A DNA stretch of 64,000 nucleotides. Source: Escherichia phage BAU.Micro_ELP-22. Each line of letters opens with the position of its first letter. The first letter of the stretch is position 1. Below, in pieces: positions 3,725 through 22,832 of this stretch. A program made the position numbers and the translations under genes. Under the pieces are notes generated by a model. The model saw only the letters and a list, made by a program, of their open reading frames with translations. It did not search any database and was not told where the DNA came from. The stretch is taken from the sequence record OR699282.2; one strand, written 5' to 3'.

Positions 3725-3732
3725 TATAAATA
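3725..3732 (+). promoter_or_regulatory. T4-type late promoter box TATAAATA
   Basis: Exact TATAAATA about 35 nt upstream of the first large structural gene (3767). Confidence 0.4.
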
Positions 3733-20373: not shown

Positions 20374-20405
20374 ATAATAAGAGAATAACTCTAAGGAGAG
20401 ATATT

Positions 20406-20846
20406 ATGGAAGATATTAATGATTTACGACACGTAATGGACTTTATCGGAAGTACTGAAGAAGATAATTCGTATGATGAAGTACTATTAACTTTTATTGA
20501 AAATAGTTTGTTTTTAAGTTCTGCTGCACATAACTGGCACTTACAATGTCATTTTTATACAAAGCATTTACAATTAGATGAACTATATAAAGAATTACCA
20601 GAATATGTAGACGCATTTGTTGAAGGTATCATGAATAATCGTGGTGCTTTACAAGTTGGAACTGGTAATAGTTATCGTTTTACACCAATTGAAGATTGTG
20701 TACCAATTCTTGAAGAATATGTAGAGCAATGTAGAGCAATTCATGATATGCTTGAAGAATCAGGTGATTACGGCAGTGTAAACACATTAGAAGATATTAT
20801 GAGTTTTGTTGAAGGAACACTTTACAAACTTAAAGTTTTACAATAA
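20406..20846 (+). CDS. ferritin-like / Dps-like four-helix-bundle protein (146 aa)
   Basis: AAHNWHLQCHFYTKHLQLDELYKELPEYVDAFVEGI resembles the Dps ferroxidase-centre region, with His, His, Asp and Glu at the expected spacing. Confidence 0.35.
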   Translation: MEDINDLRHVMDFIGSTEEDNSYDEVLLTFIENSLFLSSAAHNWHLQCHFYTKHLQLDELYKELPEYVDAFVEGIMNNRGALQVGTGNSYRFTPIEDCVPILEEYVEQCRAIHDMLEESGDYGSVNTLEDIMSFVEGTLYKLKVLQ

Positions 20847-20853
20847 AATATAT

Positions 20854-20884
20854 GGAGAGTCATTGTGACTCTCCTTTTCTTTTG
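20854..20884 (+). terminator. intrinsic terminator (ggagagtca-ttg-tgactctcc + T-run)
   Basis: 9-bp perfect stem and TTTTCTTTT. Confidence 0.6.
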
Positions 20885-20894
20885 GACAAATAAA

Positions 20895-21512
20895 ATGAAA
20901 TCTCATGATTTAGCAAAATTACTACTATCTCAACCAAATCTAGAAATTTATCATTATGATGCAGAGAGTGACTTGCATTATCAGAATTTTGATAATAAAT
21001 TAATGGTCACCCCATCTGGCATTTTCACAACGGTAAAACCCACATCAGTTTCTGAAAATGTACTTACACCATACGAAACCCCGCTCTTGGGTCATGTACA
21101 AATTTTCTTTAAGGATGGTACTATTACTCCAAAATTGGAGGGTTCATCTATTCAAACTGTTCTTAACTTAGAATCTGGGTTGATATTTAACATTCCTTAT
21201 GAAAAGCCAATTGTTTTATTAGGTAAAAATCAATCAGCACCATCAGGGAATCAAAATGCTGTTTGGTATACACCCGATGATATTGATTTCATTTCTGTAC
21301 TGACAGAATATGAACCTAATACTTGGCATGGAACATGGGAAACTATGTCGTATGATGAAGCAATTGAATGTGGTAAAAATTTAGTTAAAATGTTATTTCC
21401 ACAAAAAGAAGAACTTTCACAAGAACAAATTGATTCATTTTCTAAAGATTTTCCTGATTCTGAATTCAATGTAAAAGTATCACCTTCTATGATTGATAAA
21501 ATTAAAAAATAA
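20895..21512 (+). CDS. hypothetical protein, paralog of 22248
   Basis: Start moved to the Met after the terminator (ORF track 20865). Shares DLAKLLLSQPNLEIYHYD, TPSGIF and YTPDDIDF...TWHGTWETMSYDEA with the 22248 product. Confidence 0.5.
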   Translation: MKSHDLAKLLLSQPNLEIYHYDAESDLHYQNFDNKLMVTPSGIFTTVKPTSVSENVLTPYETPLLGHVQIFFKDGTITPKLEGSSIQTVLNLESGLIFNIPYEKPIVLLGKNQSAPSGNQNAVWYTPDDIDFISVLTEYEPNTWHGTWETMSYDEAIECGKNLVKMLFPQKEELSQEQIDSFSKDFPDSEFNVKVSPSMIDKIKK

Positions 21513-21878: not shown

Positions 21879-22251
21879 ATTCCACCAGCATTGTTCTATA
21901 CATGAATGTGATGATTGTGGTATACAAATGAGTGACATTTATACAGTTTCCTGTAAAGGTTTCAAATTCACTCACGGTGAACCTGCTTATTGTTATGGTA
22001 CAGAAGAAGGTGATATCGAAGTAGTACTGAAAGAATTGTTCCAGTACTTGCAAAGTGTAGGTCATGATGTTACAATACCCACATATTATGAAGATGATTA
22101 TGATGCACATGTAGAAGAAAATACATATTATAATCAATTCGTTTATGGTAATGGTTTTATCACATACCTACATGAGAATGGTATTGAGGTAAAAACTAAG
22201 TACACCAGTGATGATTATGATGATGATAATTCTATGGAGATTGAAGATTGA
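21859..22251 (+). CDS. hypothetical Cys-rich acidic protein (130 aa; start uncertain)
   Basis: HQHCSIHECDDCG...SCKGF suggests a small metal-binding N-terminus; alternative start at Met 21928. Confidence 0.35.
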   Translation: MQIKKIKFHQHCSIHECDDCGIQMSDIYTVSCKGFKFTHGEPAYCYGTEEGDIEVVLKELFQYLQSVGHDVTIPTYYEDDYDAHVEENTYYNQFVYGNGFITYLHENGIEVKTKYTSDDYDDDNSMEIED

Positions 22252-22832
22252 AAGCAAAAGACTTAGCAGCACTGTTGTTGCAGAATCCTGAAATGGAAGT
22301 GTATCATGAGCACATGCACATTGATGACATGTGTGACGCTTATTATTCACCAGAAAATGTGTCTGGTATTGAAATTACCCCTAGTGGAGTATTCATCAGT
22401 ACTGAACGTATTGATTATAATTCTCAGCAAGAAATCAAAACTCCACATAATAAACCTCGCATTGGTGCTATTGACCTAGTATTTCATCAGGACCGTTTGG
22501 TGGAATATGATGAAGACGATGGTACTACCCGAACTGATGTTGAGAATGTTGTTTTTCGTTTTTATAATGCATACGAAGACCCAACTACTGGAGAAGATTT
22601 CTTCCGTGAGCTATTAGAGGATGGAGAAGTTTATGGTCAGGATGGTACGGTTTTTGTACTGGACCCTAACTATGAGCCAGATCACAATACATGGCAATTC
22701 TATACACCAGAAGATGTAATGGAAGTTAAAGTACTTACTGATCTTGACGATAATTGGAATCCTATGTATACTTCAATGACATATGAAGAAGCCAAAGAAT
22801 ACTTCGTTTCTAAACTAAACATTACAAAATAA
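22248..22832 (+). CDS. hypothetical protein, paralog of 20895
   Basis: DLAALLLQNPEMEVYHEH, TPSGVF and YTPEDVMEV...NWNPMYTSMTYEEA align with the 20895 product. Confidence 0.5.
   Translation: MKAKDLAALLLQNPEMEVYHEHMHIDDMCDAYYSPENVSGIEITPSGVFISTERIDYNSQQEIKTPHNKPRIGAIDLVFHQDRLVEYDEDDGTTRTDVENVVFRFYNAYEDPTTGEDFFRELLEDGEVYGQDGTVFVLDPNYEPDHNTWQFYTPEDVMEVKVLTDLDDNWNPMYTSMTYEEAKEYFVSKLNITK

Follow-up and report, generated by a model that had tools for sequence, protein, structure and literature searches.

A predicted Dps-like protein of jumbo coliphages, related in sequence to T4 RI.-1 and probably associated with the virion

We describe a single gene of an Asteriusvirus jumbo coliphage of the PBECO4/121Q/phAPEC6/JP4 group, lying in a window of 64,000 nucleotides, which is the whole stretch of DNA that was analysed. 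Read from the sequence, the open reading frame occupies 20406..20846 on the + strand, starts with ATG and encodes 146 aa. It is preceded by a strong ribosome-binding signal and followed by a strong terminator-like hairpin (20854-20874) with a GC-rich stem of 9 bp, which leads into a run of T residues. The features of the locus are listed here, with helix boundaries taken from DSSP analysis of the AlphaFold (AF2) model.

20393..20400, + strand: strong Shine-Dalgarno sequence AAGGAGAG, 5 nt before the ATG, read from the sequence
20406..20846, + strand: coding sequence for a Dps-like protein of the DUF5856 / PHROG 858 / T4 RI.-1 family (146 aa, 16.9 kDa, pI 4.3)
20406..20465, + strand: acidic N-terminal extension, residues 1-20, low pLDDT
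20421-20444, + strand: motif D-L-R-H-V-M-D-F, residues 6-13, conserved in the N-terminal extension
20466..20546, + strand: predicted helix A, residues 21-47, holding H42 and the invariant H45
20538..20624, + strand: ferroxidase-like ligand block H45-x8-H54-x14-D69-x3-E73, from profile alignment and conservation
20538-20540, 20565-67, 20610-12 and 20622-24, + strand: codons of the candidate ligands H45, H54, D69 and E73, respectively
20556..20642, + strand: predicted helix B, residues 51-79, carrying H54, Y61, D69 and E73
20586-88, + strand: codon of the invariant Y61, which aligns with Tyr50 of Listeria Dps
20643..20687, + strand: long B-C crossover loop, residues 80-94, predicted coil
20688..20834, + strand: helices C (residues 95-119) and D (residues 122-143), from the model and from conservation
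20820..20840, + strand: C-terminal signature L-Y-K-L-K-x-L, with Y140 conserved at 97%, K141 at 93% and L145 at 99%
20854..20883, + strand: intrinsic-terminator-like hairpin GGAGAGTC-ATTGT-GACTCTCC, then TTTTCTTTT, directly 3' of the stop codon

Gene neighbourhoods were taken from annotated phage records. Over the 4 kb around the reading frame the sequence is 99.8% identical to that of phage JP4, and the flanking genes in the window belong to PHROGs without known function, with no virion gene among the immediate neighbours within the window. No T4-type late promoter (TATAAATA) occurs near the gene, the motif being matched once in the whole window, and sigma-70-like promoter matches beside it are at chance level. 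No rI-like gene was found next to it, and it is not adjacent to lysis-inhibition genes. In JP4 the same gene carries the label 'starvation-inducible transcriptional regulator'. This is the label of PHROG 858, and it looks like a corrupted form of the Dps name 'DNA starvation/stationary phase protection protein'. We rejected a regulator role, as no DNA-binding domain was found in the 146-aa protein, which is very acidic.

The protein is a member of DUF5856, a compact sister family of Dps-like proteins, and is not a canonical Dps. It matches the Pfam DUF5856 model over its full length (model positions 1-94 of 94) with 99.8 bits (E=1.9e-28) against a curated gathering threshold of 34.6 bits, and it matches PHROG 858 at E=1.9e-35. 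Pfam Ferritin (PF00210) gives 18.6 bits, below its gathering score of 24.5 bits, and the NCBIfam Dps equivalog NF006975 gives 15.4 bits, far below a cut-off of 114 bits. Two PROSITE-type Dps patterns both match E. coli Dps, and neither matches the phage protein. A word-indexed protein search returned 27 close relatives, all of them DUF5856, two of which are named 'DNA-binding ferritin-like protein' by JGI. When 1.84 billion representatives were searched exhaustively by HMM, at least 758 DUF5856-family proteins were recovered at E<=1e-3. Most are 115-150 aa long, and about one third of the best 150 of the 758 are proteins of 200-830 aa that carry the domain at one end. By tblastn the family is present in 179-427 phage records, from Rak2-like jumbo phages through T4-like phages of Aeromonas, Proteus and Morganella to nearly all Ackermannviridae. 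The best explanation is that DUF5856 is a phage-only family and a compact offshoot of the Dps mini-ferritins.

One member of the family is the product of T4 rI.-1 (NP_049716.1; synonym MobD.6), a protein of 128 aa that matches DUF5856 with 114.5 bits (E=5e-33). The RaK2 ortholog, gp015, is annotated 'rI.-1', and the record of Aeromonas phage Aeh1 traces the name to T4. Judged by sequence, the 146-aa protein is a homolog of T4 RI.-1. The two share the H-x8-H-x14-D-x3-E block, which in T4 RI.-1 reads H33-x8-H42-x14-D57-x3-E61, and a C-terminal Y-x-x-K-x-L end. They differ in that T4 RI.-1 lacks the acidic N-terminal extension, and in that T4 rI.-1 lies in the rI lysis-inhibition operon, whereas the jumbo-phage gene does not stand beside such genes.

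The initial annotation had proposed that this reading frame encodes a Dps/ferritin-like protein of 146 aa, and for fold and ligands this was borne out. AlphaFold predicts a four-helix bundle with a pLDDT of 83, and the structural neighbours of the model come from the ferritin superfamily only (Dps, Dpr, bacterioferritin and mini-ferritin). Homology searches against the PDB agree with the predicted fold. The single sequence retrieved Dps matches only, and a 90-sequence family profile retrieved Dps of S. aureus (2.4e-9), MrgA (3e-7), and Listeria Dps and Dlp-2 (both 5.6e-7). Every profile match with E below about 0.01 was a Dps-family protein, making Dps the only significant matches.

The candidate ligands lie in the peptide AAHNWHLQCHFYTKHLQLDELYKELPEYVDAFVEGI (residues 40-75), for which a His/His/Asp/Glu spacing like that of the Dps ferroxidase centre had been claimed. 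A HMMER alignment to Listeria Dps (1QGH) equates H45 with His31, H54 with His43, D69 with Asp58 and E73 with Glu62, and Y61 with Tyr50. His31, His43, Asp58 and Glu62 are the ferroxidase ligands of Listeria Dps. The same alignment places a 3-residue deletion in the A-B loop of the phage protein. The claimed likeness thus holds for the residues, which align with Dps ligands, but not for the first interval, since Dps has H-x11-H-x14-D-x3-E and the phage protein has H-x8-H followed by the same x14 and x3 spacers. An x11 spacing exactly as in Dps is found between H42 and H54. An hhalign comparison of the family profile with the single E. coli Dps sequence, at a probability of only 21%, pairs H54, D69 and E73 with His63, Asp78 and Glu82, and pairs H42, not H45, with His51. 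The first His ligand is ambiguous in these alignments, as HMMER points to H45 and hhalign to H42. Our preference is for H45, the only invariant one of the two, as position 42 is Trp in the subgroup with a long N-terminal domain.

Conservation across the family singles out the same residues. The His/His/Asp/Glu pattern is beyond chance, because H-x8-H-x14-D-x3-E appeared in 26 of 20000 shuffles of the protein (0.13%). It is exact in 171 of 176 collected relatives; the five exceptions comprise two C-terminal fragments, two proteins in which 1-residue indels alter the spacing but leave the four residues in place, and one Asp-to-Ser change, so that 173 of 174 full-length relatives keep the complete set. 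H42, W44, H45, H54, D58, Y61, D69 and E73 are all invariant in 26 close relatives. In a set of 150 representatives sharing no more than 50% pairwise identity, H45, H54 and E73 are conserved at 100% and D69 and Y61 at 99%, compared with 74% for H42 (74-90% in all) and 42% for D58. Fixed columns in this set are few, namely H45, H54, D69, E73, Y61, Y140, K141 and L145. On helices C and D the 150 representatives show no conserved Glu or His, and only Y140, K141 and L145 exceed 85% there. For this reason the putative site is of the Dps type, formed between subunits from helices A and B, and not of the ferritin type. Maxi-ferritins and bacterioferritin use Glu and Glu-x-x-His pairs from helices A-D of one subunit, an arrangement not seen here, and an intrasubunit di-iron site of that kind is ruled out by the lack of conserved ligands on helices C and D. 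Taken together, we consider it very probable that this is a Dps-like metal-binding four-helix protein.

We compared the protein with Dps mini-ferritins of Listeria innocua (1QGH), S. aureus (2D5K), Borrelia (NapA, 2PYB) and E. coli, and with MrgA of B. subtilis (2CHP). Like them, it is a predicted four-helix bundle of ~16 kDa with putative metal ligands on helices A and B only. It shares the aligned His, His and Asp-x3-Glu, the nearby Tyr and an aromatic residue on helix D, where Y140 aligns with the conserved Dps Trp in the alignment to Borrelia NapA. It departs from Dps in its A-B loop, 3 residues shorter, and in the predicted model, where residues 80-94 are assigned as coil by DSSP and no Dps-type BC helix is present. 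The BC helix of Dps is located at the two-fold interface. Leu replaces the Trp that immediately follows the first His in Dps, and a Trp instead sits one residue before the His. Further departures are scores below the PF00210 and NCBIfam Dps cut-offs, a phage-borne gene and the finding of the protein in virions.

The charge of the protein is also unlike that of E. coli Dps. The whole protein has a pI of 4.30 and a net charge of -20, and its residues 1-28 carry a net charge of -8, compared with +3 over the first 22 residues of E. coli Dps, whose basic, Lys-rich N-terminal DNA-binding tail it lacks. Such a tail is a feature of E. coli-type Dps and not of all Dps. Because of the low pI and the acidic N-terminus, direct binding or coating of DNA by this protein is unlikely, and the suggestion that it could protect DNA in that way loses ground accordingly. 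Within the N-terminal extension, the D-L-R-H-V-M-D-F motif is specific to the jumbo-phage subfamily and is absent from the T4 and Ackermannviridae homologs. Inspection by eye for a possible capsid-targeting sequence revealed no canonical T4 prohead-protease site ([LI]-x-E) in residues 1-35, such motifs being present inside helices only.

Canonical Dps genes have been described in phages, including CPT_0123 of Campylobacter phage CPt10 and genes of Lactobacillus plantarum phages and the 'Gratiaviridae', with a proposed role in countering oxidative or iron stress (PMC2853527, PMC8008677). The 146-aa protein resembles these as a phage-borne member of the Dps/ferritin-like superfamily. The CPt10 type is an ordinary Dps that BLAST recognises as kin of bacterial Dps (30% identity and E=4e-12 for CPt10), whereas the protein described here belongs to the separate DUF5856 family.

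Published proteomes place members of the family in purified particles. The 146-aa protein is identical at 146/146 positions to gp306c of phAPEC6, a phage of the same species. In CsCl-purified phAPEC6 particles, analysed as whole-lane gel slices by LC-MS/MS, gp306c (16.90 kDa) was detected with 6 unique peptides and 65.8% coverage, the seventh highest coverage among 62 proteins on the virion list and comparable with 68.0% for the tail sheath and 74.9% for the major capsid protein (PMC7247149). The list also includes evident non-structural proteins (thymidylate synthase, a RecA-like protein and SSB), and listing is therefore not proof of specific packaging. Two further members were detected by mass spectrometry in purified virions. 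ORF78 of Dickeya phage LIMEstone1 (DUF5856, E=8.8e-29, with a weak TOBE match as well) was confirmed with 3 peptides and 28% coverage, and its gene, which is part of a virion-gene block (ORF78-85), is preceded by an annotated late promoter (PMC3296691). Salmonella phage Sajous1 gp217 (DUF5856, E=1.3e-28) yielded 10 spectra in CsCl-purified virions and a Phyre2 'Ferritin' assignment at 96.7% (PMC10892097). Both proteins carry the same ligand block as the jumbo-phage protein. They differ from it in their length of 117 aa, in lacking the N-terminal extension and in sharing only ~30% identity with it, and their genes lie inside a late-transcribed virion block, whereas the neighbours of the jumbo-phage gene are non-virion genes.

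Other proteomes contribute less. RaK2 gp015, the closest characterised relative from a phage with a virion proteome, is absent from the 54 RaK2 virion proteins. The JP4 virion analysis was confined to bands of 18-385 kDa and so says nothing on this point, the CBB paper makes no mention of the family, and the phiD3 proteome covers 10 proteins only. On balance, we think it likely that the virion association of the 146-aa protein is genuine. To read the suggested role during infection as purely intracellular is probably incomplete, since the protein is found in purified virions.

Domain fusions offer a separate indication of where the family may act. In one representative, P0082, the N-terminal part is a DUF2213-like domain and the C-terminal part a DUF5856 domain. 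Homologs of the N-terminal part that stand alone occupy the protease/scaffold slot of Shigella phage Sf11 and Brevundimonas phage StAshley, with the decoration and major-capsid genes directly downstream. Matches to the model of the 146-aa protein in the BFVD structure library include domains in proteins annotated 'Prohead protease' and in multi-domain phage 'Dps' proteins. Fusions of this kind would fit delivery of the DUF5856 domain into the procapsid.

We weighed these observations against the alternative that the protein is a purely intracellular Dps-like protein and that its detection in virions reflects co-purification. Once host responses have been shut down, such a protein would buffer iron or peroxide stress, or hold iron for the phage ribonucleotide reductase. 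The fold and ligand evidence fits this alternative equally well, and so do the RaK2 result, the cytoplasmic enzymes on the phAPEC6 list, the non-virion neighbours in the window and the early promoter that the T4 rI operon also has (PMC2962797). A dense, iron-loaded mini-ferritin shell could, moreover, band near phage in CsCl. Against co-purification stand detection by three laboratories in three phages of two distant lineages, the high coverage in phAPEC6, the position of the Ackermannviridae gene within a virion-gene block behind a late promoter, and the fusions to head-assembly proteins, which point to the particle. We regard an exclusively intracellular protein as somewhat unlikely.

We propose instead that the protein is a ferritin-like, Dps-derived and particle-associated iron-binding or ferroxidase protein, a combined statement of predicted function that we hold with no more than even confidence. 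It would assemble at least into Dps-like dimers and possibly into a 12-mer shell, in which H45 and H54 of one chain, together with D69 and E73 of the two-fold neighbour, would bind and oxidise Fe(II). Tyr61 may serve as a radical trap, as its presumed analogue, Tyr50, would in Listeria Dps. The protein would be a late product that accompanies the particle, most probably within the head. By sequestering iron, either in the head or once ejected into the next host, it would reduce Fenton damage to the 350-kb genome. Given its strong acidity and its lack of a basic tail, it would work through metal chemistry and not by coating DNA.

An encapsulin is an HK97-fold shell that encloses ferritin-like proteins, and the proposed arrangement is analogous, in that a ferritin-superfamily protein would sit inside a shell of that fold. 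The likeness extends to the fusion of some DUF5856 domains to proteins of head assembly, an arrangement that would direct these domains into the interior of the shell. The analogy has limits: DUF5856 shows no sequence kinship to the encapsulated Flp/EncFtn proteins, no targeting peptide was identified, the phage shell also holds the genome, and the interior site of the 146-aa protein is putative. A bolder reading would make DUF5856, T4 RI.-1 included, a phage-wide set of Dps-like nanocages inside HK97-fold capsids, which in jumbo phages may belong to the inner body. Such cages would carry or scavenge iron within the particle and shield the condensed genome from Fenton chemistry. They would be the counterpart of encapsulin-ferritin cargo and might pass into the next host along with the DNA. 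We consider this reading doubtful.

The virion data and the fusions to scaffold-slot proteins could also be accommodated by a metal-independent structural protein of the head, derived from a Dps ancestor and acting as an inner-body or scaffold-like component. phAPEC6 has an inner body of 91 x 18 nm, and the strong acidity of the protein recalls that of some head-internal peptides. Such a role is improbable, as the near-absolute conservation of the four Dps ligand positions and Tyr61, among relatives no more than 50% identical, is hard to explain without metal chemistry.

The kinship with T4 RI.-1 raises a further alternative, an accessory function in lysis inhibition in which the protein would tune the timing of RIII, RI or holin T through protein-protein interaction and its Dps-like fold would be incidental. 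T4 rI.-1, a DUF5856 member, shares an operon with the antiholin gene rI, whose stop codon it overlaps by 4 nt. In the sole experimental work that we found on rI.-1, plasmid-borne overexpression slightly prolonged lysis inhibition (LIN), with synergy with rIII, and the protein was described as hydrophilic, with a pI of 5.6 and unknown function (Golec et al. 2010, PMC2962797). This effect is weak and was seen on overexpression only, and a 2019 review calls the role of rI.-1 'as yet undefined' (PMC6832632). The family also occurs in RaK2-like and Ackermannviridae phages, and according to the RaK2 authors that phage has no T holin, RI, RI.1 or RIII (PMC3622015), so that lysis inhibition cannot be the general function of DUF5856. 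A pure interaction role would, in addition, leave four invariant metal-ligand residues unexplained. We judge this alternative very improbable.

There is only a slight chance that the particle displays or carries iron through this protein so as to exploit host siderophore or iron receptors at adsorption as a 'Ferrojan horse', as proposed for Sajous1 gp214-217: in Vi01-like phages the virion ferritin-like protein adjoins tail-associated and molybdate-binding-like proteins, but plating was unchanged on tonB, feoB and tonB feoB Salmonella (PMC10892097), and the fusions point to the head and not to the tail, where a location is putative.

The identification of the protein as Dps/ferritin-like is correct but not new, because the labels, the DUF number, the virion mass spectrometry match and the Phyre2 'ferritin' call (in a 2024 paper) are public. 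Literature searches for 'DUF5856' and for jumbo-phage 'Dps-like' proteins returned nothing. In the searchable literature we did not find it stated that T4 RI.-1, phAPEC6 gp306c and the Ackermannviridae virion 'ferritin' form a single family, or that the shortened DUF5856 scaffold retains a complete, invariant set of Dps ferroxidase ligands; nor did we find there any report of Fe(II) oxidation by H2O2 or O2, or of iron-core formation, for DUF5856 proteins. The value of this analysis lies in that linkage and in a testable hypothesis, and not in the discovery of a fold.

Recognition of the family would correct a widespread misannotation, 'starvation-inducible transcriptional regulator', which spread from PHROG 858 and for which we find no support here. 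If an active, particle-borne mini-ferritin is confirmed, phages from relatives of T4 to jumbo phages of 350 kb would carry iron-detoxifying machinery in the virion. This would bear on the survival of densely packed genomes in oxidative environments and on phage stability for therapy, and likewise on whether phage particles contain meaningful iron and on the function of the conserved T4 gene rI.-1. Should the nanocage reading also prove true, phages would truly carry iron in their particles, as the 'Ferrojan horse' idea supposes at its still unproven core.

Beyond small stand-alone genes, larger phage proteins also carry DUF5856 as a terminal domain, among them the metagenomic representatives P0082, P0175, P0155, P0169 and P0046-type proteins and the BFVD structure-library entries A0A6J7WIS1 and A0A6J7XDU5. 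The domain was observed in these arrangements: C-terminal, fused to a DUF2213-like head-assembly domain; joined to phrog_3041/395 proteins labelled 'cytidyltransferase'; internal, within proteins of 620-832 aa; or N-terminal, in a sizeable set of proteins that measure 200-390 aa and differ in their tails, for which a full-length match in cultured phages was not found. The PHROG 858 product name 'starvation-inducible transcriptional regulator' is carried by the gene of the close relative JP4 (L001 7407-7847), by RaK2 (L003) and by two further phage loci (L005, L006), and is spreading across phage annotations, the T4 RefSeq record included. This name is without support: the protein is acidic, and a DNA-binding domain was not found in it. 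The name appears to be a distorted form of that of Dps.

The following features lie within and downstream of the Dps-like ORF (window 20406-20846, + strand):
20421-20444, + strand, residues 6-13: D-[LIM]-R-x-x-[MI]-D-[YF] motif, conserved in 26 sequences
20854-20883: perfect 9-bp hairpin, GGAGAGTC(ATTGT)GACTCTCC, followed by T-runs on both strands
20895-21512, + strand: first phrog_18200 gene, directly downstream of the ORF
22248-22832, + strand: second phrog_18200 gene, ~1.4 kb further downstream

The motif belongs to the jumbo-phage subfamily, where the rest of the surrounding N-terminal extension is disordered and acidic, and is missing from the T4 and Ackermannviridae versions of the family. 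It could serve in interaction or targeting. The hairpin looks like a bidirectional intrinsic terminator that would end a transcription unit just 3' of the ORF. The two genes beyond it are paralogs (27% identity, E=2e-13), the first starting at ATG 20895, matching the JP4 annotation; the mechanical ORF list places this start at GTG 20865, within the putative terminator hairpin. The T4 late-promoter octamer TATAAATA is strongly avoided in this AT-rich phage, which encodes its own sigma factor, with a single match in the whole 64-kb window (3725-3732) versus 11.1 +/- 3.3 expected from shuffles.

The following genes were noted in related loci:
L003 226-594: RaK2 gp010 (F403_gp524), RefSeq name 'Rz-like spanin'
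L001 4154-4528: its equivalent in the JP4/window lineage, ~3 kb upstream of the Dps-like ORF
L007 2593-3162: LIMEstone1 ORF080, virion protein
L008 3080-3649: Sajous1 gp215, virion protein

We note that the RefSeq name of RaK2 gp010 conflicts with its detection in the virion by MS, together with gp011 (Table S3 of PMC3622015).

In the two Ackermannviridae loci, the ORF080/gp215 virion protein is encoded two genes upstream of DUF5856. It shows a weak resemblance to TOBE/molybdate-binding-like domains (Pfam E=0.0045), and Phyre2 called BiMOP for it (PMC10892097). This hints that Ackermannviridae virions may contain a small metal- or anion-binding module.
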